From assembly GCA_039587215.1 (NCBI GenBank), contig JBDHIW010000002.1:8546-64550 (forward strand): a stretch of DNA of 56,005 bases. Direction: 5' to 3'. The notes under the pieces are model-generated. The model was not told the DNA's origin. It saw only the letters and a program-made list of their open reading frames with translations, and did not search any database. Position numbers and translations under genes: made by a program. This DNA comes from Gemmatimonadota bacterium (GTDB taxonomy: Bacteria; Gemmatimonadota; Gemmatimonadetes; Gemmatimonadales; GWC2-71-9). This document shows, in pieces, positions 1-54,202 of this stretch; positions within the stretch are counted from its first letter, which is position 1, and each line of letters opens with the position of its first letter.

Positions 1-1247
<1,247 letters not shown>

Positions 1248-45238: not shown

Positions 45239-46801
45239 TCAGGGTTGCTCGAGCAAGTGAAGCTCGACTCGACGGTTCCGGCGTCGGCCGTCCGGCGTCG
45301 CATTGTCCGCGATCGGACGGTCGGGTCCGTAGCCGCGCGCCACCATTCGGTCGGGCCGAACACCCTGGCGGGCGAGATAAGCCTTGACCGACTGTGCGCG
45401 TGCAAGCGACAGGCGTTGGTTGACCTGCAGCGACCCGCTGGCGTCGGTGTGCCCGGCGATCTCGATCCGGACCATGGGATTCGCCATCAGCGACTCGGCC
45501 ACGCGATCGAGGGCGGCATACGACTCCTCGGTGAGGGCGGACCGGCCCGACTGGAAGGTCACGTCCTCCAGCACGAGCGGGCGGGCAACACCCTGCTCGA
45601 CGAGGAACAGCGTCGGGCACCCGGTCGCGTCGACGGATTCGCCCGCCCGCGTGGCGGGGCAGGCGTCATCCGGATCGAGCACCCCGTCGCCGTCGCTGTC
45701 GCGGACGACCTCACAGCCGCGCGCGTCGACCTCCGTGCCCGCGGCGGTGTTCGGGCACGCGTCCGACGGATCTTCGACGCCGTCACCGTCCGTATCCCGG
45801 ACGCAGCCCGCTGCGTCCACGGGAGCGCCGGCGGGGGTCGCCGGGCACTGATCGAGGCCGTCGTACACCCCGTCGGCGTCGCCGTCCAAGGGACAGCCGC
45901 GCGCGTCGATCTCGGCACCGGCCGGGGTGTCCGGACAGGCGTCGAGTCCGTCGAACACACCATCGACGTCGGTGTCGACCGGACATCCGTTCGCATCGAC
46001 GGCCGCACCGCCGGGAGTGTTCGGGCAGACGTCGATGCCGTTCACCACGGCATCGCCGTCGGAGTCCATGGCGCACCCGGACGTGTCGACGTCGGCGCCT
46101 GCGGGCGTGTCCGGACAGGCGTCGAGTCCGTCGAACACCGTGTCGGCGTCGCCGTCGAGCGGGCAGCCTCGCGGATCGACGAGGGCGCCGAGCGGGGTGC
46201 CCGGGCAGTCGTCGGCTCTGTCGGCCACGCGGTCGCCGTCACGATCGCGGGGTGGGCCGCCGAAGGCGAAGATGGACAGGCCCGCGGCGACCGAGAGGTT
46301 CGTGGTTCTGGCCGTACCGGGCGGCAGCTGGGTCGTGGGGACGTAGTCGATGCGCCCTTCGATCCGGAACGCGGTCCGTCCCCCGAATCCGATACGGTCG
46401 CCGATGACGCCGTGCACGCCGTTGTCGACGCCCTGGGTCACCCCGCGGTAGAAGAGCCGCGTGTACCCCGCACCGAGATAGACGGACCCCAGTGGGGTCC
46501 CGAGGTGCCCGGTCAGGGTGCCGCCCACGCGTGTCACGCGCACGCGTTCCCCCGTCGCGGTCAGTTGTGACTGGGTGTGGTCGGCGACGCCGTCGATCGA
46601 GAGAAACCGCGCGAGGTAGATCCCGAACCACCCACCGGCACCGAACGCGTTGTCGGCGCCCACGCTCGCGGCATCGAAGCGGGTGAAGGACCCGAACGCG
46701 CCCATCTCCACTTGGCCGCCCCGGCCGGTCTGGGCACGCACCGTGGGAACGGCGACGACCGAGAGGACGAGGACGAAGAGGGTACTCCGCCAGCGGAACA
46801 T
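45239..46801 (-). CDS. OmpA family outer membrane protein with thrombospondin type-3 repeats
   Basis: Signal peptide, beta-barrel, seven DxDxDG...CP...GC repeats, IAGHTD...NQRLSLARAQSV...NRRVE peptidoglycan-binding domain. Confidence 0.93.
   Translation of the reverse strand: MFRWRSTLFVLVLSVVAVPTVRAQTGRGGQVEMGAFGSFTRFDAASVGADNAFGAGGWFGIYLARFLSIDGVADHTQSQLTATGERVRVTRVGGTLTGHLGTPLGSVYLGAGYTRLFYRGVTQGVDNGVHGVIGDRIGFGGRTAFRIEGRIDYVPTTQLPPGTARTTNLSVAAGLSIFAFGGPPRDRDGDRVADRADDCPGTPLGALVDPRGCPLDGDADTVFDGLDACPDTPAGADVDTSGCAMDSDGDAVVNGIDVCPNTPGGAAVDANGCPVDTDVDGVFDGLDACPDTPAGAEIDARGCPLDGDADGVYDGLDQCPATPAGAPVDAAGCVRDTDGDGVEDPSDACPNTAAGTEVDARGCEVVRDSDGDGVLDPDDACPATRAGESVDATGCPTLFLVEQGVARPLVLEDVTFQSGRSALTEESYAALDRVAESLMANPMVRIEIAGHTDASGSLQVNQRLSLARAQSVKAYLARQGVRPDRMVARGYGPDRPIADNATPDGRRRNRRVELHLLEQP
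45614..46246 (-). repeat. Seven tandem ~90-bp TSP3 coding repeats
   Basis: 30-aa periodicity; exact 32-bp copy GTGTCCGGACAGGCGTCGAGTCCGTCGAACAC at 45927-45958 and 46107-46138. Confidence 0.9.
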
Positions 46802-47136: not shown

Positions 47137-48216
47137 ATGCGCATCGCCATTTCAACCGGCGGGGGAGACGCGCCGGGGCTGAATGCGGTGATCAGGGCAG
47201 CTGTCGTGGGGGCGTTGAACCGCGGGTGGGAGGTCTTCGGCATTCGGCGGGGATTCGGCGGTCTCCTGGGCGACGCCCGGGTCGTGCCGCTCGACCGCGA
47301 GAGCGTGCGCGGGATCACCCACCTCGGCGGGACCATTCTCGGCACGACCAACCGCGGAAATCCCTTCCGCTGGCCGCACCTGCAGACCGACGGAACGTGG
47401 GTGGAGGAAGACCGCTCCGAGGAGGCTCTGGAGGCGTTCCGGGCGCTCGAACTGGACGCGCTGATCGCCGTCGGCGGCGATGGGACGCTGCACATCGCAC
47501 GCGAACTCTGGCGGAGGGGTCTGCCCGTGGTGGGCGTGCCGAAGACGATCGACAACGACGTCGGCGCCACCGTCGTCACGTTCGGCTTCGACACGGCGGT
47601 CACGACGGCGACCGAGGCGCTCGACAAGCTGCACTCGACGGCGGAAGCGCACGAGCGCGTCATGGTCGTCGAGGTGATGGGGCGCCACGCGGGATGGATC
47701 GCCCTCAACTCCGGACTCGCGGGTACCGCCGACGTCATCCTCATGCCCGAGATTCCGTACCGGATGGATTCCGTGATCGCGAAGGTGCGCGAGCGCGAAG
47801 CTGCCGGGCGGCACTTCAGCATCATCGTCGTCGCCGAGGGGGCCGCTCCGGCGGAAGGCTCTCCGACGTACCAGGCTGAGGCCGCGGCCGGGGGGACGGC
47901 CCGGCTGGGTGGTGTCGCAGAAGCGATCGCGGCGGTGATCCAGGAGCAGACCGGCAAGGAGACCCGGTCGCTGACGCTTGGGCACCTGCAGCGCGGAGGC
48001 ACGCCGACGACGTTCGACCGGCTGCTCGGACTGCGATTCGGTGCGGCGGCGGTGCGCGCGGTGGAACGCGGCGAGTTCGGTTCGATGGTCGCGCTGGATC
48101 CGCCGACGATCCTCACGGTGCCGATGGACGACGCCCTGGGCACCGTCAAGGGCGTCCCGCTCGACTCGGACAGCGTGGTGACGGCTCGAGACCTGGGTAT
48201 CTGCCTGGGTGACTGA
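47137..48216 (+). CDS. pfkA: 6-phosphofructokinase (group III-like)
   Basis: TGGGDAPGLNA, GGTILGT, GGDGT, PKTIDND, TFGFDTA, EVMGRHAGW, VAEGA, LGHLQRGG. Confidence 0.93.
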   Translation: MRIAISTGGGDAPGLNAVIRAAVVGALNRGWEVFGIRRGFGGLLGDARVVPLDRESVRGITHLGGTILGTTNRGNPFRWPHLQTDGTWVEEDRSEEALEAFRALELDALIAVGGDGTLHIARELWRRGLPVVGVPKTIDNDVGATVVTFGFDTAVTTATEALDKLHSTAEAHERVMVVEVMGRHAGWIALNSGLAGTADVILMPEIPYRMDSVIAKVREREAAGRHFSIIVVAEGAAPAEGSPTYQAEAAAGGTARLGGVAEAIAAVIQEQTGKETRSLTLGHLQRGGTPTTFDRLLGLRFGAAAVRAVERGEFGSMVALDPPTILTVPMDDALGTVKGVPLDSDSVVTARDLGICLGD

Positions 48217-50839
48217 CACCGAGGAGCGCGCGGACGGCGCCGCGCCGCTCCGTCACGTCCGCGACCACTACCTGCCGCCCGACCGGGCGGCGTACCGCCG
48301 GGCCGAGCCTTCGACTGGCCGTGTGATCGTCATCGCGCCGACACGCGCGGCGTGCGAGACCATCGAATTGGCGTGCGGGCTCACCATCGACACGGTCTTG
48401 TCGCGCGCGCATGGCGACGAGGTGCGGTCGCTGGCCGCGGGCGGCAGAGGATTCGGCATTGTCGCGGGTACGGGGACCGGGAAGACGCTCGCGGTACGGC
48501 TCATCGCGGAAGAGACGGTCGGCACACCCCTGCGCATCGGCGTCGTGAACCGCGAGCGCGAGGCGACGCCGGAGACCCCCAGTTGGAACGTCGTGATCGT
48601 GACGACCGGCATCGCGCGAAGGTGGTTTCAGGACGATCTCATCCAGCCGCAGGACACGCTCGTCGTCGACGAGATCCACCAGACGTCGGCGGAGCTCGAG
48701 TTGTGCTTGGCCCTGGGGAAACGCGTGGGGTGTCGGTTCATCTGGTTGTCCGCGACGGTGGACCCCTCGTTCTACGAGCGCTACCTGGACGCGTCGGCGG
48801 TGCTGGAAACCTCGGCGTTCGACCCCGCGCTGAGCGCCAACGTTGCGACCGCACGCCGCACGCCGGTGGACTTCTTCGATCGGGGGGTGCTGCGCCGGTT
48901 CGTGCGCGAGGAGCGAGGCGTCGCGGTGTTCCTGCCGACCCGATCGGAAGTCGAAAAGTTGGCGGCGGAACTGGGGGACGAGTGGCCCGAGATCGCGACG
49001 GCCTTCTATCACGGCGGCGAGCCGATCCGCGTGATCCGTCCGTTCCTCGAGGGGACCGCGGAGCGACCCTATCTGCTCGTGATGACGCAGGCTGGGCAGT
49101 CGGCGCTCAACATCCACGGCCTGGACACGGTCGTGATCTACGACGCGTGCTACCAGAACCGGGTTCTCGGTGGGCGCAACGTGCTCCAGCGGCAGTACTT
49201 GGGTCCCAACGAGATCCTGCAGATGGCGGGCCGGGTCCACGGTCGGGTGGCCCAGGGTGAGGTACACATCCTCACGGACCGTGACATCGACTTCTTTGCC
49301 CTCGAACCCGTCCCGCCGCAGTTCCAACTAGCGGGCGACTCCGAGCGGGTCGCGTTGACGGCGGCCGCACTCGGTGTGGACCTGTCGGATCTCGAGTTGC
49401 CCGTGCCCCTGGACCGGCGGGCCTACCGTGCGGCGCGGCGGCGGCTGGAGGATCGCGGGATCGTGGACGGCGGGCGGCTCACGGCGTACGGCCGTGAGGT
49501 GGAGGCGATGCCCGTCGACCGTCCCTGGGCTGAACTGCTCGTGCACGCCTCGGACGCGCTGGCGCCGTACGTGGCCGTTGCCGCCAGCGTCGATTCACTC
49601 CATCGGATGACGCGGGACCTCGTGGACCTCCGCGGCCTCGAGGTGTACGGCAGCGATCATCTCACGGTGTACAACGTGTACGCGGAGGCGGTCAACCTCT
49701 ACGGCAGCGTCGGCGAGGTCTACGGTCTGCCGCGCCATGTCTTCGATCCGACGATCGAGGAGTGGGCCCAGGATCGTGGGGTGCTCGTGAAGGCGATCGA
49801 AGACGCGGCGCTCGGCATGGCATCCGTCTACCGCACGCTCGAGTTGCCGCTACCTGAGGCGCTCCCGATCGTGGACCGCGCAGCCGCGCGCGCGTATCGG
49901 GACCTGGTTGCCCGGGTGTGCCCGTTCGACCTCGTCGTCGACGGAGAGACGGCTGACGGGTCGCGGGTGCGCATCTCGGACTCCTCGATGTGCTCCCGAG
50001 GGAGCGCGGTCGCCGGACCCATTCGGTATTTCGCGGACCGGTTCGGCCGCCCGCGCGGCGCGATCGAAGGCACCACCCTCTCGCGGGAGTTGATGCGACG
50101 CCATGCGACCCGGGAGGGTCCCGTCGTCGAGTATCGAGGCGAGCGGGGCCGCACCCGGTTGGTGGCGGTGGAGACGCTCACCTATGCCGGCTTCACCCTG
50201 GATCGGATCTCGGAGCCGGTGAGGGGATTCCCGGAGGACCTCGCGGAGGAGATTCGCGGGGCGATGGCGGACGGACTCATGCGGGGCGTCACGGAGCATC
50301 CGGGACAGCGGGAGGTCGGACGGGTGGCCGCGCGTATCGACGAGTACTGGCGACGTTCCGGGGGAACCCTCGACGGAGCGAATCCGGAGCGCGTGCGTGC
50401 GGGGCTGCTCGAGCAACTCAGTGAGGTGAAGAGCCACGCGGACTTCATGGCGGCGTCTCTGCACCTCGACCTCGATGCCGCGGTGTTGCCGCGGGACCGG
50501 CATCCCCTCGACGCCCTTCCGGACTCCGCCTTCGTGCTCGGCGACCGTGTGCCGCTCCGGTACGACGTGGCCGAGGGCCGCCCGATCGTGGAACTGGCAC
50601 TCCGCGAAAAGCAGGCCAGGCGGCTTCGCGCACAGGACCTGCCGGACGTTGATCGGGATCTCGTGTTCGTGGTTTACCGAGGCCGAACGGAACTGCTGCG
50701 CGCGCGGTCGCTGCCGCAGCTGCGCGGGAGTCTCCGTGGGCTACGCCCGCCTCCACGAGGTGGAGGTGGTGGGCGTAGCGGGCGCGGCGGACGCGGTGGG
50801 CGTAGCGGAAGCGGTGGGAGGGGGCGCCGGCGCCGTTAG
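48209..50839 (+). CDS. DExH-box (HrpA/HrpB-like) helicase with RGG tail
   Basis: AGTGTGKT, TTGIA, DEIH, SAT, FLPT, YHG, QMAGRVHGR, LT.YG..V..MP; C-terminal GRSGRGGRGGRSG. Confidence 0.85.
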   Translation: MTDTEERADGAAPLRHVRDHYLPPDRAAYRRAEPSTGRVIVIAPTRAACETIELACGLTIDTVLSRAHGDEVRSLAAGGRGFGIVAGTGTGKTLAVRLIAEETVGTPLRIGVVNREREATPETPSWNVVIVTTGIARRWFQDDLIQPQDTLVVDEIHQTSAELELCLALGKRVGCRFIWLSATVDPSFYERYLDASAVLETSAFDPALSANVATARRTPVDFFDRGVLRRFVREERGVAVFLPTRSEVEKLAAELGDEWPEIATAFYHGGEPIRVIRPFLEGTAERPYLLVMTQAGQSALNIHGLDTVVIYDACYQNRVLGGRNVLQRQYLGPNEILQMAGRVHGRVAQGEVHILTDRDIDFFALEPVPPQFQLAGDSERVALTAAALGVDLSDLELPVPLDRRAYRAARRRLEDRGIVDGGRLTAYGREVEAMPVDRPWAELLVHASDALAPYVAVAASVDSLHRMTRDLVDLRGLEVYGSDHLTVYNVYAEAVNLYGSVGEVYGLPRHVFDPTIEEWAQDRGVLVKAIEDAALGMASVYRTLELPLPEALPIVDRAAARAYRDLVARVCPFDLVVDGETADGSRVRISDSSMCSRGSAVAGPIRYFADRFGRPRGAIEGTTLSRELMRRHATREGPVVEYRGERGRTRLVAVETLTYAGFTLDRISEPVRGFPEDLAEEIRGAMADGLMRGVTEHPGQREVGRVAARIDEYWRRSGGTLDGANPERVRAGLLEQLSEVKSHADFMAASLHLDLDAAVLPRDRHPLDALPDSAFVLGDRVPLRYDVAEGRPIVELALREKQARRLRAQDLPDVDRDLVFVVYRGRTELLRARSLPQLRGSLRGLRPPPRGGGGGRSGRGGRGGRSGSGGRGRRRR

Positions 50840-51423
50840 CCGGCCGACTGCTCGGCAATGGCGAGCATGCCGAGCCATGACGCCATGTACGCCGAGCGAA
50901 TTTCCCCAGGGTCCGCGCCCGATCCAAGCGCCGCACCCAGCCCAACGATGGTCGACGCCAGCCACCAGCCTACCTCGCCCGGCAGAAGTCTCGCGTCCAG
51001 TCCTCCGCGTTCGGCAAGCGAGTTGTAGGCGATTCCCAGCGCGGTAGCGAAGGCAGCAACCCCGCTACTGTCCCTTTGGTCAGTACTGAACAGCAGCGAG
51101 GACCAACCACCTGGGCTGCCATTTACTGACTCGGCGGTCAATAAATCCCATGTTGCGTCCATAGCATCGGGGATCGTGGCCGCTCGATCGAGGCAATCCG
51201 TCCAGCTCGAGATCCGTTCCGCGCTCATCCGATCAAGCGCAGCGTCGATGAGCGCCTGTTTGTTCCCGAAGTGATAAGTGATGAGACCCTTCGCACAGCC
51301 GGCGTGCTCGGCCACCGCGTCCACGGTGATCCGGTCGGCAGGAACCGTCTTGAGGAGCTCAGCGGCGGCGGCCGTCAGGAGATCTCGGGACTCCTCCTTG
51401 GTTCGTCGGGCGCGTTTGGCCAT
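50836..51423 (-). CDS. TetR/AcrR family transcriptional regulator
   Basis: RRTKEESRDLL.AAA.LL...ITVDAVAEHAGCAKGLITYHFGNKQAL; GGAG SD upstream of ATG 51423. Confidence 0.88.
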   Translation of the reverse strand: MAKRARRTKEESRDLLTAAAAELLKTVPADRITVDAVAEHAGCAKGLITYHFGNKQALIDAALDRMSAERISSWTDCLDRAATIPDAMDATWDLLTAESVNGSPGGWSSLLFSTDQRDSSGVAAFATALGIAYNSLAERGGLDARLLPGEVGWWLASTIVGLGAALGSGADPGEIRSAYMASWLGMLAIAEQSAG

Positions 51424-51439
51424 GTTATGACTCCGTTTA

Positions 51440-51505
51440 TTGACCCATTGTACAGTATATGAAATGGGCCAACGAAACACAACGTACTATACTGCTGGTC
51501 AGTAT
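51440..51505. promoter_or_regulatory. Divergent promoter region with two inverted repeats
   Basis: TTGACCCATT-N13-AATGGGCCAA (51440-51472, one mismatch) and ATACTG-N5-CAGTAT (51489-51505); TATACT hexamers on both strands. Confidence 0.6.
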
Positions 51506-51581: not shown

Positions 51582-52028
51582 ATGCACACGCCCCCAGCAG
51601 ATCTACCCCAGTCCACGGCCCGCGCGGTCCTGAACGCACTCCCCGAGGCGGTGTTCTTCTTCGCACCCGACGGGCGCTGCCGCTACGCGAACATGCACGC
51701 GAGAGAACTGGCGCGCGGGCTCGGCCTTTCGCTGCCGATCACCTCGGAGTCGCTGGGCTCACTGGGAGCGCAGGGAGCGCGGATCTATCCCGTGTGGGAC
51801 GGCGATGCGAAGCTCGGCGAGTTGGTCGTCGTGGCCAACGGAGCGACAGACGAGAACACGCTGGCGGATCGGGAGCGGAATGCGATTCTCGAGATGCTGC
51901 AGCAGACCGGCTGGAGGCTCTCCGAGAGTGCGAGGCGGCTCGGGATTTCACGAACGACCCTCTGGCGCCGGCTCAAGGCGTACGGCCTCGACCGTGACGG
52001 ACGAGGGCGATGGTCGCGCTCCTCCTAG
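51582..52028 (+). CDS. PAS-like domain fused directly to a Fis-type HTH
   Basis: VLNALPEAVFFFAPDGRCRYAN (PAS start); TLADRERNAILEML...W.LSESARRLGISRTTLWRRLKAYGL (HTH_8). Confidence 0.82.
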   Translation: MHTPPADLPQSTARAVLNALPEAVFFFAPDGRCRYANMHARELARGLGLSLPITSESLGSLGAQGARIYPVWDGDAKLGELVVVANGATDENTLADRERNAILEMLQQTGWRLSESARRLGISRTTLWRRLKAYGLDRDGRGRWSRSS

Positions 52029-54202
52029 CGAGCCTGCTGGTCGGCGCTGCGCCTGCGGACACGGCGACGTTCGCCGATGCCCGGACTGAATCTCTCTACT
52101 ACATCGCCAGAGCCCGCCACCTCCGTCAGGACTCGATCGTCCGGGACTATCAGGCGACCGTCCACACCCGGATCGACGCGACGGCGGGTCGCAGCCGTTT
52201 CGCCAGGCTGGCCACCCTGTGGGTGCATGAGTCCGAGGCGGACATCGCCTGGCACGCACCGAATGACCTGAAGATCAGCGTCCGCGGTGCCCGCACGAAG
52301 GTCCCCGTCATGGGCCTCCTGCCGGAGCTGCGGGCCGCGGAGGCGGAGCTTCGTGAAGAGTTCCGCGGACAGGTGCTCCTGGACCGACCGTGGTTCATCC
52401 CGCGTTCGCTGGGGGACAGCATTCGGCTCATGGGGTTGCCGACGGTCGCAGCGTTGCACCCGCTGGCCCCGGGGGCGGAGGCCTACTACCGGTTCGCCGT
52501 GCTGGATTCGGCTCGTCTCCGGCTGCCCGGCCGCGAGGTACGCACCGCACGACTCAGGGTCGAGCCCAAGGCCGTGGCACCGGCCCTCGTCGCCGGTCAC
52601 GTCTGGCTCGACGTCGAAACTGGTGACGTGGTGCGCATGCGCCTCTTGTTTCTGGGTGAGTACCTGTGGGACTCGCCGGAGGACGCTACCCCGGACGACA
52701 GTCTCGATGCGCAGGCCACGACCGAGCGCGTCATGCGCCACGTGACCCTGGAGGCCGAACTCGAGTACGTGCTCGTCAACAGCCTCTACTGGATGCCGTA
52801 CCGTCAGTACCTCGGCATCACGGCGGAGATACCGATCATCCTCAATCTCACCGTGCCCGCCCGTGCGGTGAGCACGTTCAGCAATTACCGGGTCAACACC
52901 GGCCGCCGCGTCGGCTTCACGATTCCGGACTCGCTGCTCGAGGCCGACGGCGATGCGGAGACGTGGGACGGGGACGGCGACAGCGACGAAGGTGACGAAG
53001 GGGAGGTGGGGGACCGTCGGGAGGCCAGGCGGGACTCGCTGGGATACGCGCGCGGAGCCACGTGGCGGGACGGTCGCTGGGAAGTGTCGGTGCCGCCGCG
53101 CGACTCGGTTGCCGCCTACGACTGGCCGGACGAACTCGCCACCGAGATGGACCCCGCGGCCGAGGCGCGGCTTGCCGAGACGATTGCCGAGCTTGCGGCG
53201 TTGGAGGACCGCCTGCCGTCGGAGTGGACGAATCGTCGCCGGTTCCGGCTCGCCTGGGAGAAAGTGAGCGAGGTGGTCCGGTTCAATCGTGTTCAGGGTC
53301 TGTCGCTGGGCGCCGGCATCGAAATTCGGCCGCGCATTCCCCACACCAGCCTGCTCCTCGGCGGGCGCATGGGTTTGTCCGACCTCCGGCCCCTGGGAAG
53401 CGTCACCGTGCGGCACGACGGCCCGGGTGGGCGTCTCGACGTGGCGGGCTATCGCACCATGCGGGAAGCGGAACCTTGGACCAGCGGCTTGGGAATCGGC
53501 AATTCCCTGAACGCGCTGTTCACGGCGCACGACGACGCGGACTACTTCCTCGCGACCGGCGGGTCGTTCACGTGGATCTGGAACCGCGGACTGCTGCGCG
53601 ACGTCCACGTGACCCTGGCGTACGAGCGGCACGACAGCGTGCAGGTCGAGAGCGGCTCTGCGATCGCCGATCTGTGGGGCACGGGCACGTTCCAGCCAAA
53701 CCCCCCGGTGGATGAGGAGTGGTTCGGAAGTGGGGCAGTGACCCTGAACCGCAGGATCGGGCCGGTCGGCTTCGGGGTCGGCGCGAGCCTGCTCACCGAC
53801 TGGGCCCGCGTGTCCGGTCGCGGCTGGATGCACGCCGACGTCGGGTTCCGGGTCGCCGGCCGGTCGGGCCGTCTTGCCGGGCGCCTCGCCGCCATGCGCG
53901 GCGACGTGATGCCGCAGACGCTGTGGCGCGTCGGCGGACCGCAGACGGTGCGGGGGTACACGTACGGCACGCGCACCGGCCGCTATCTCTGGTCCCTCCA
54001 GCTCGACATGGCGCTCACCCGCTCGGCGATCGTGACCCCGGTCGCGTTCGTGGATGCCGGCGACACGTTCGTCGGAGACCCGTTGGTCGGCGTCGGCGGT
54101 GGCCTGTCGATCCTCCGCGGCCTCATTCGCTTCAACGTCTCCGCCGGCGTTCGCCCCAAGACCGAGGCGCGGTTCGATTTGATGTTCCGGGCGCCGCGTT
54201 AG
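52010..54202 (+). CDS. Putative outer membrane beta-barrel protein (Omp85-like C-terminus)
   Basis: Signal peptide; RFNRVQGLSLG; alternating amphipathic strands; GGPQTVRGY resembles the Omp85 VRGY loop; FVDAG. Confidence 0.65.
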   Translation: MVALLLASLLVGAAPADTATFADARTESLYYIARARHLRQDSIVRDYQATVHTRIDATAGRSRFARLATLWVHESEADIAWHAPNDLKISVRGARTKVPVMGLLPELRAAEAELREEFRGQVLLDRPWFIPRSLGDSIRLMGLPTVAALHPLAPGAEAYYRFAVLDSARLRLPGREVRTARLRVEPKAVAPALVAGHVWLDVETGDVVRMRLLFLGEYLWDSPEDATPDDSLDAQATTERVMRHVTLEAELEYVLVNSLYWMPYRQYLGITAEIPIILNLTVPARAVSTFSNYRVNTGRRVGFTIPDSLLEADGDAETWDGDGDSDEGDEGEVGDRREARRDSLGYARGATWRDGRWEVSVPPRDSVAAYDWPDELATEMDPAAEARLAETIAELAALEDRLPSEWTNRRRFRLAWEKVSEVVRFNRVQGLSLGAGIEIRPRIPHTSLLLGGRMGLSDLRPLGSVTVRHDGPGGRLDVAGYRTMREAEPWTSGLGIGNSLNALFTAHDDADYFLATGGSFTWIWNRGLLRDVHVTLAYERHDSVQVESGSAIADLWGTGTFQPNPPVDEEWFGSGAVTLNRRIGPVGFGVGASLLTDWARVSGRGWMHADVGFRVAGRSGRLAGRLAAMRGDVMPQTLWRVGGPQTVRGYTYGTRTGRYLWSLQLDMALTRSAIVTPVAFVDAGDTFVGDPLVGVGGGLSILRGLIRFNVSAGVRPKTEARFDLMFRAPR

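Follow-up and report, generated by a model that had tools for sequence, protein, structure and literature searches.

Must the sequence motifs of the first RecA-like domain (RecA1) of a superfamily 2 (SF2) helicase follow one another in a single fixed order? To our knowledge, helicases of superfamily 1 (SF1) and SF2 are taken to keep the order I-Ia-Ib-II-III without exception, and every motif-based classifier is built on it. The question is raised by a gene at 48209..50839 on the forward strand of a 56,005-nucleotide stretch of DNA from a Gemmatimonadota bacterium (assembly GCA_039587215.1, contig JBDHIW010000002.1), referred to here as the window. A preliminary description of the window had noticed that a strand-helix resembling motif Ia lies N-terminal to Walker A in the encoded protein, with no Ia in the usual place, and had proposed a topologically rearranged HrpB-like subfamily. 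Our analysis of sequences and predicted structures makes it highly probable that the protein is a DEAH/RHA-derived RNA helicase or RNA-dependent NTPase, driven by nucleoside triphosphate (NTP), in which the order of the first RecA-like domain is permuted.

Results

A motif Ia-like unit stands ahead of Walker A

The PTR segment RVIVIAPTRAAC occupies residues 38-49 (48320-48355), with the codon of R38 beginning at 48320, and opens a strand-helix that extends from R38 to A55 (VIVIAPTRAAC) and lies 45 residues ahead of Walker A (AGTGTGKT, A86-T93, residues 86-93, 48464-48487). The interval given in the preliminary description, 48320..48490, fits both elements. From its conservation and the structure model, the putatively relocated unit (48320..48373) consists of a strand at residues 39-43 (VIVIA), P44-T45-R46 and a helix at residues 46-55. 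It is followed in the model by a helix at residues 63-78 (48395..48442), the counterpart of the canonical helix that precedes motif I (the profile alignment with HrpB begins at query residue 70), and then by strand beta1 with Walker A, or motif I (GIVAGTGTGKT, 48452..48487). The N-terminal lead in front of the unit (residues 1-37, RDHYLPPD..., 48209..48319) is conserved in close orthologues, and its residues 1-10 have a predicted local distance difference test score (pLDDT) below 50. Counted on the alignment, 25 of 29 diverse relatives begin 10 or fewer residues ahead of the strand, and the 37-residue lead of the window protein is therefore a local addition.

Residues V41-A47 and C49-E53 are invariant in 15 orthologues at 63-74% identity, while P44, R46 and C49 do not vary among 18 relatives whose identity falls as low as 31%. 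Among the 29 diverse relatives P44 is kept in 29/29, T45 in 24/29 (M in four, N in one) and R46 in 28/29 (K in one). Judged from these alignments, the N-terminal segment is translated, is under constraint and belongs to the best-conserved parts of the family, which disposes of the possibility, raised in the preliminary description, that it is unconserved. In the structure of E. coli HrpA bound to RNA (PMC8325345), two residues of motif Ia, P130 and R132, touch the RNA, and P44 and R46 of the window protein form the same P-x-R pair. The introduction of the Prp43 paper (PMC5262380) states that motifs Ia, Ib and IV bind RNA.

The span behind the P-loop is shortened

Profiles were built from a 36-sequence family of permuted proteins and from a group of nine proteins of canonical order, here called the sister group, and the family was aligned with the latter and with HrpB using hhalign. 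Against the sister profile (probability 100, E 2.2e-61) the alignment carries a single 26-column gap, which falls over the sister's Ia (riiiRQPTR~as~l~~ks), and against the HrpB profile (probability 99.7, E 3.2e-25) a 25-column gap falls over the corresponding ...kIimLEPRRLA. Where canonical relatives have a 25-26-residue Ia strand-helix, the gap and the spacing thus leave a five-residue link, GTPLR (residues 105-109, 48521..48535).

Behind this link, both HMMER and hhalign pair IGVVNRERE (residues 110-118, 48536..48562) with the strand that comes after Ia in canonical proteins, VGYxVRF (VGYKVRFSD) or VGCINRD. In the HrpA nomenclature (PMC8325345), the VGYxVRF-type strand is the Ib hook-turn and TxGx is motif Ic. 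IGVVNRE with R115 is accordingly the Ib or hook-turn strand, and VTTGIA (residues 131-136, 48599..48616), which HMMER and hhalign also place, is motif Ic. The order IGVVNR, TTGIA, DEIH given in the preliminary description stands, and its naming of TTGIA as Ib gives way to Ic. Its observation that no Ia lies between Walker A and IGVVNR is borne out by the gap of 25-26 columns and the short spacing.

In the permuted family a median of 62 residues (58-64, n=29) separates the Walker A Lys from DExH, compared to 85 (85-106, n=9) in the sister group and 91 (90-128, 56 of 58) in Hrp-like proteins, and the Lys itself stands at median position 64, compared to 39 and 37. The Lys thus lies further along the chain while the spacing behind it is shorter, and therefore, on the aligned sequences, the roughly 25 residues lost after the P-loop equal the roughly 25 gained ahead of it.

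The same exchange was seen when 238 sequences having both Walker A and DExH were surveyed with a regular expression for a hydrophobic strand followed by P[TMSNR][RK]. The element precedes Walker A in 165 of the 238, every one with a short K-to-D spacing of 58-65, and follows it in 59, with a spacing of 85-106; the regular expression missed the remaining 14, which are eight N-terminally cut permuted forms and six canonical Hrp-like proteins. No sequence of the 238 has the element in both places, and a segment of this type precedes Walker A in 0 of the 65 canonical proteins of the survey.

The protein is a DEAH/RHA-type helicase

The open reading frame (ORF) starts with GTG and comprises 876 codons, and its product of 876 amino acids is a DEAH/RHA-type SF2 helicase of a soil bacterium. 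Motif I has the form GxxGxGKT (AGTGTGKT, 86-93), and its G89, G91, K92 and T93, together with motif II (Walker B) DEIH (154-157, 48668..48679), motif III SAT (181-183, 48749..48757) and Q338, R342 and R346 of motif VI, are invariant in the 18 diverse relatives. The second RecA-like domain (RecA2) supplies motif IV FLPTR (241-245, 48929..48943), which is PTR-like itself, motif V MTQAGQSALN (292-301, 49082..49111) and motif VI QMAGRVHGR (338-346, 49220..49246). The latter had been called atypical, and it does differ from QRxGRAGR, yet Q338, G341, R342, G345 and R346 are all kept in the 18 relatives down to 31% identity. The protein has the features by which DEAH/RHA enzymes are recognized: DExH as motif II, SAT as motif III, a Q and two Arg in motif VI and, according to its predicted model, C-terminal domains packed on the motor core, while the Ia strand-helix that directly follows the motif I helix in these RNA motors is missing from that place.

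General sequence models recognize the protein poorly. The Pfam scan returned Helicase_C (4.2e-07) and DEAD (2.8e-06), the latter at 27.6 bits against a cut-off of 26 and restricted to residues 126-185 (profile positions 95-161 of 167), which is the second half of RecA1 alone. In five distant permuted relatives the DEAD match starts at 86-93 and ends at 162-164, while in two canonical sister proteins it runs from 18 to 165 and from 14 to 161. HA2, OB_NTP_bind and HrpB_C gave no Pfam match at E up to 1. Both NCBIfam models for HrpB fell below their cut-offs (TIGR01970, 55.0 bits against 546.15; NF008662, 39.6 against 1053), and the helicase belongs to neither equivalog. The best HMMER match among Protein Data Bank sequences was E. 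coli HrpA (4.3e-07), in an alignment that begins at query residue 115, equivalent to HrpA residue 157. The PADLOC models of anti-phage defence yielded no family for the helicase at E up to 0.001; membership in a defence system was considered and set aside, as no PADLOC model matched.

Compared with HrpB and HrpA of E. coli (PDB 6EUD/6HEG and 6ZWW), the helicase likewise has two RecA domains, motifs I, Ib/hook-turn, Ic, II (DExH), III, IV, V and VI, and a C-terminal half that aligns with that of HrpB. It differs in having Ia before motif I, where HrpB and HrpA have it after, in the Walker A sequence GTGTGKT, in a hook-turn with RE rather than RF, in a motif VI of the form QMxGRVxGR and in an Arg/Gly-rich tail. 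This tail (GGGGGRSGRGGRGGRSGSGGRGRRRR, 50744..50836) is modelled with low confidence (pLDDT below 50 for residues 854-856 and 858-876), and among orthologues its length varies or it is absent.

Relatives, sister group and a single permuted clade

The searches for relatives returned 1085 representatives at E up to 1e-3, of which the best 150 were available, and 4623 clusters, of which the best 120 were available. Of the 120 clusters, nine have no precomputed Pfam domain, and the source names are mostly 'hypothetical protein'. A search of the Atlas named clusters from Gemmatimonadota only and then HrpB-like ones.

Two proteins of ordinary order, P0264 and P0265, were found among the best 150 matches at 28-29% identity (E about 1e-42). 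They read GETACGKS, then RIIVRQPTRLAS, then VGCVNRD, ITDG and LDEVH. A search from P0264 brought up further members of the sister group (P0264, P0265 and P0272-P0278, one source-named Candidatus Eremiobacteraeota) and, behind them, HrpB/HrpA-like proteins. The Ia of this group reads RIIVRQPTR, with a PTR in common with the permuted segment, and the group also resembles the helicase in VGCxNRD, FLPTR, HGG and a GR..GR motif VI; it differs in having the canonical order, I then Ia, with the K-to-D spacing of 85-106. By profile comparison (E 2.2e-61 as against 3.2e-25 for HrpB) this unnamed group is the nearest canonical relative, much closer than HrpB. The proposal of a rearranged HrpB-like subfamily is supported as regards the rearrangement, while 'HrpB-like' is a loose description, HrpB and HrpA being the closest only among relatives that are solved and named.

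A tree was calculated from 54 rows and 436 columns from Walker A onward, with the Ia columns removed by a 60% fill filter; the search was a fast one that included no bootstraps, and long branches lead to two of the sister rows. All 31 permuted rows form one clade (99 in the Shimodaira-Hasegawa-like approximate likelihood ratio test, SH-aLRT), which joins eight canonical sister rows (SH-aLRT 100) apart from 15 Hrp-like rows. With a single permuted clade beside a canonical sister, one change of order suffices.

The permuted clade varies in length, with long relatives at 35-45% identity reaching 600-1440 residues. Three distant permuted proteins, P0129, P0134 and P0137 (1351-1438 residues), carry 500-700 extra C-terminal residues without a Pfam match. 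P0137 has a weak PADLOC match to LmuB (2.7e-5, residues 1045-1406), and both P0137 and P0129 have weak Cas3 matches, the weak PADLOC matches in the two lying at 1e-4 to 1e-5. Some branches of the clade may serve in other roles. Furthermore, P0225 and P0243 have unrelated-looking N-termini before Walker A and are probably frameshifted or mis-started gene calls that have lost the relocated unit.

The N-terminal strand in models of RecA1

AlphaFold models were made for the full-length protein (59-row alignment) and for RecA1 alone (residues 28-215, 41-row alignment). The full-length model has a pLDDT of 92.0 and a predicted template modelling score (pTM) of 0.86, with strand 39-43 and helix 46-55 in blocks of pLDDT about 90. 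In the RecA1 model (pLDDT 93.9, pTM 0.90) DSSP assigns the strand at 39-43, within a block of mean pLDDT 97, followed by the helix at 46-55. DSSP assigns a strand only when it is hydrogen-bonded to a partner. As the isolated RecA1 contains no other domain, the partners of strand 39-43 are strands of RecA1, and in the model the N-terminal strand lies within the RecA1 sheet, not outside it as the preliminary description had allowed for.

The full model resembles helicases of the DEAH/RHA type throughout. Foldseek returned HrpA (9gft_B, 1.4e-27) and HrpB (6eud, 6.0e-27), and all 50 listed VIA-align rows are DEAH/RHA helicases. The best of these is Prp2 (6zm2_A, Z 25.5, root-mean-square deviation (rmsd) 3.5, 540 residues aligned, model residues 58..634; Z about 25 over 57 to about 665), and HrpB 6heg follows the model further (Z 22.5, rmsd 9.1, 601 aligned, 61..849). 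In 44 of the 50 rows the alignment begins at residues 54-67, which shows that sequence-ordered aligners omit the N-terminal unit.

The C-terminal half (49406..50743) is homologous, by both VIA-align and hhalign, to what lies behind RecA2 in DEAH/RHA helicases, and it includes a further C-terminal region. Its profile matches the C-terminal half of HrpB (probability 95.2, E 2.7e-8, 347 columns) and reaches residue ~800, and in the structural alignment the HrpB chain extends to model residue 849, although the Pfam family HrpB_C (PF08482) gives no match at E up to 1. The domains behind RecA2 are named winged-helix, ratchet-like and OB-fold in the Prp43 paper. According to the model, the helicase is a DEAH/RHA-type enzyme with the usual C-terminal architecture and an Arg/Gly-rich tail of low confidence.

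For RecA1 alone the best structural match is Prp22 (5mq0_V, Z 13.9, rmsd 3.0, 151 residues aligned, model residues 30..188). Here 39 of 50 rows begin at model residues 27-52, and the 11 that begin at 1-8 align at most 161 of the 188 residues. Among 48,161 representative chains, not one can be aligned in sequence order over the entire domain, and the best Foldseek E-value is 8.4e-6 (TMq 0.30-0.61). Residues 57-215 overlay canonical RecA1 over 141-156 residues with an rmsd of about 3. The canonical chain is about 30 residues longer in the overlaid span, and the N-terminal strand is the only strand of the model left unaligned. Ia is an interior strand of the SF2 fold, between the strands of motifs II and Ic. 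Since the rest of RecA1 overlays the canonical domain, the Ia position would be empty unless the unaligned strand fills it.

Alternative explanations

Several results weigh against the permuted order. The similarity in sequence between the N-terminal segment and Ia is insignificant, and the segment may have originated as a moved Ia or as a copy of the analogous element of RecA2. A hidden Markov model (HMM) of the segment has its best match at Ia in eight of nine sister proteins, at a weak -2.8 to 1.9 bits (independent E-values 0.76-22), and finds Ia in none of 58 Hrp-like proteins (48 without a match, 10 with a weak one elsewhere). By hhalign, the secondary match of the segment is to the motif IV region of the sister group (score 24.5, E 0.034, probability 1.5%), with the sister's Ia behind it (score 21.3, E 0.096, probability 0.6%). 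With an HMM of canonical RecA1, the Ia part falls on the N-terminus in 22 of 29 sequences, again weakly (-4.0 to 2.6 bits), and on the motif IV region in 11 of 29. The exact slot of strand 39-43 in the sheet is one that we infer from the models rather than read from coordinates. Finally, a duplication intermediate with Ia both before and after Walker A was found in 0 of the 238 surveyed sequences, with the best 150 of 1085 and the best 120 of 4623 hits covered.

These observations bear most on the possibility that Ia was simply lost. The N-terminal strand-helix would then be an accessory extension that joins the RecA1 sheet outside the Ia slot, with a PTR that arose by convergence or was copied from the RecA2 motif IV region, and RNA binding by RecA1 would depend on the hook-turn and Ic alone. 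It agrees with this that the segment's best secondary profile match is motif IV (FLPTR) rather than Ia, both being insignificant, that the canonical HMM also puts its Ia part on that region in 11 of 29, and that some DEAH helicases have N-terminal extensions which VIA-align pairs with model residues 11-28 (6 of 50 rows). Against it, as many residues are gained ahead of the P-loop as are lost behind it. Moreover, the element resembles Ia in being a buried strand of hydrophobic residues only, with P-x-R and a helix behind it, and P44 and R46 are kept throughout the clade and match the Ia residues with which HrpA contacts RNA. The overlay of 57-215 on canonical RecA1 would also leave the Ia position vacant if the N-terminal strand did not occupy it. 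We consider loss of Ia unlikely.

Less probable still is that a degenerate Ia remains in its normal place, as IGVVNRE or the GTPLR link, and that the N-terminal PTR is a chance look-alike. IGVVNR does consist of a hydrophobic strand and then Arg, and in one naive alignment MAFFT put it under the Ia region of the sister group. Yet HMMER and hhalign place IGVVNRERE on the strand after Ia with a gap of 25-26 columns, the spacing is 23-29 residues short, and a chance look-alike would hardly be invariant in orthologues while a like segment precedes Walker A in 0 of 65 canonical proteins. The preliminary description had named a degenerate Ia in the normal position as the finding that would overturn its proposal; what was found is a gap at Ia, with IGVVNRE on the hook-turn strand.

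That residues 1-62 do not belong to the protein, owing to a mistaken start, a frameshift or a chimeric assembly, has next to no probability: the GTG start overlaps the upstream gene and eight cut forms lacking the segment turned up in the order survey, but the frame is open, the protein is conserved from residue 12-18 on in most listed matches, which span 105 genomes, distant relatives start a few residues ahead of the strand, and the segment is invariant in orthologues.

The permuted order thus remains the preferred explanation. Split-chain docking of residues 28-62 onto 63-215, made with an alignment of our own, is weakly in its favor, with a score of 0.54 compared to 0.02 for the best of three controls. 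Of the 157 solved complexes in the benchmark, 116 reach that mark, as do 2 of the 215 mismatches; only 18 of those 157 complexes, but both passing mismatches, lie at 0.60 or under. Between docking runs at least 87% of contacts are shared, and the partner has a pLDDT of at least 55.

Distribution and gene neighborhood

The helicase gene (forward strand, GTG start) is present in 105 of 151 genomes of the phylum sample, mostly as a single copy. It was found in 69 of 71 genomes of family f1, 31 of 31 of f2, 2 of 2 of f3 and 2 of 2 of f8, and in 0 of 44 from the other eight families. These tallies include two unpublished genomes, G057 (f1) and G097 (f8), without which they become 103/149 overall, 68/70 for f1 and 1/1 for f8. 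The gene is near-universal and single-copy in the order to which the window belongs. In the window's own genome, which is 87% complete, there is no other match to the HrpB model, and a plasmid search gave as its only match an HrpB at 28% identity. In contigs taken from one genome per species, 599 loci matched the search pattern, and 574 of them hold a gene for a relative; the 80 best of these loci are close orthologues in metagenome-assembled genomes (MAGs) of Gemmatimonadota/-ales and one labelled Bacillota. This last (L041) carries an orthologue at 63% identity amid otherwise Gemmatimonadota records and is probably a binning error rather than a case of gene transfer.

Upstream of the helicase lies a gene for 6-phosphofructokinase (pfk, 47137..48216, forward strand, Pfam PFK 3e-103), whose stop overlaps the GTG start of the helicase by 8 nt (GTGACTGA), which suggests translational coupling. 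Neighbor counts over the best 80 loci are lower bounds, owing to short flanks at some of them; pfk lies upstream on the same strand in at least 47, and at least 26 keep, downstream on the other strand, the gene for a TetR-family regulator that stands tail-to-tail with the helicase in the window (50836-51480, reverse strand). The pairing of a glycolytic kinase with an RNA helicase is unexplained. Beside the TetR gene, the forward strand encodes a small protein with a Fis-type HTH_8 domain (51582-52028) and then an ORF of 730 residues without a Pfam family at E up to 1e-4 (52010-54202). On the reverse strand at 45239-46801 is the gene for an outer-membrane protein with an N-terminal beta-barrel, thrombospondin type 3 repeats (calcium-binding, DxDxDG-like) and a C-terminal OmpA domain.

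Discussion

In the canonical RecA1 the elements run pre-helix, beta1, P-loop, alpha1, Ia strand-helix, hook-turn strand, Ic, II and III. In the window protein the Ia-like strand-helix (38-55) comes first, followed by the pre-helix, beta1, P-loop and alpha1, with alpha1 connected to the hook-turn through five residues. The first five elements would thereby be rotated, so that [pre-helix, beta1, alpha1 | Ia strand, Ia helix] becomes [Ia strand, Ia helix | pre-helix, beta1, alpha1]. The relocated unit would stay in the RecA1 sheet, and P44, R46 and the N-terminus of the helix would face the RNA backbone as in canonical Ia. The ATP site would be an ordinary one, formed by K92/T93, D154/E155 and Q338/R342/R346, and the RNA path would be lined by motifs IV and V of RecA2 and by P44/R46, hook-turn R115 and T132/T133 of Ic from RecA1. 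The C-terminal domains would enclose the RNA as in HrpA and Prp43, and the Arg/Gly tail may add unspecific affinity for RNA.

Both RNA contact and enzymatic activity of the helicase are proposed here by analogy. HrpB is reported to be an RNA-dependent NTPase that has no helicase activity alone (PMC8325345), and therefore unwinding by the window protein should not be assumed. As to the origin of the permuted order, we infer that a 5' portion of the gene may have been duplicated in tandem, after which the first copy of the P-loop and the second copy of Ia were lost, and that a large clade would have inherited this rearrangement from the one ancestor in which it occurred.

Natural permutations of motif order in a nucleotide-binding alpha/beta domain, with fold and chemistry kept, are known from the circularly permuted P-loop GTPases of the YlqF/YjeQ type and from permuted methyltransferases. 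Those are whole-domain circular permutations in other superfamilies, whereas in the helicase only the first five secondary-structure elements of RecA1 appear to be rotated, the remainder of the chain staying as it is. A literature search for a permuted SF2 or RecA1 motif order, with subscription journals and supplements outside its reach, found no description; one candidate from the permutation literature (PMC7824862) concerns methylases, not helicases, and as regards the Z5898-like subfamily, named in PMC8325345, the available part of PMC3681947 gives no sign of a permuted order. On balance, we lean slightly towards regarding the clade as the first reported case in which nature has permuted the motif order within the conserved SF2 motor core. 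The clade would be ancient, of single origin and present in at least 574 species-representative genomes, and in it the Ia unit would have been cut from the P-loop helix and re-attached N-terminally.

If this is true, the coupling of NTP hydrolysis to RNA translocation would not require the covalent link from alpha1 to Ia that all solved SF2 helicases matched here possess, and it may even be re-tuned in the permuted clade. For the order to which the window belongs, naming a near-universal gene that Pfam and NCBIfam models catch poorly would need a dedicated model. More generally, a large natural clade that breaks the fixed order would mean that the RecA1 core tolerates re-wiring, and it would be a clean case of sub-domain permutation with a surviving canonical sister group. 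Proteins of the permuted clade would lend themselves directly to testing if mechanochemical coupling depends on the P-loop helix and the first RNA-binding element being linked in the chain.

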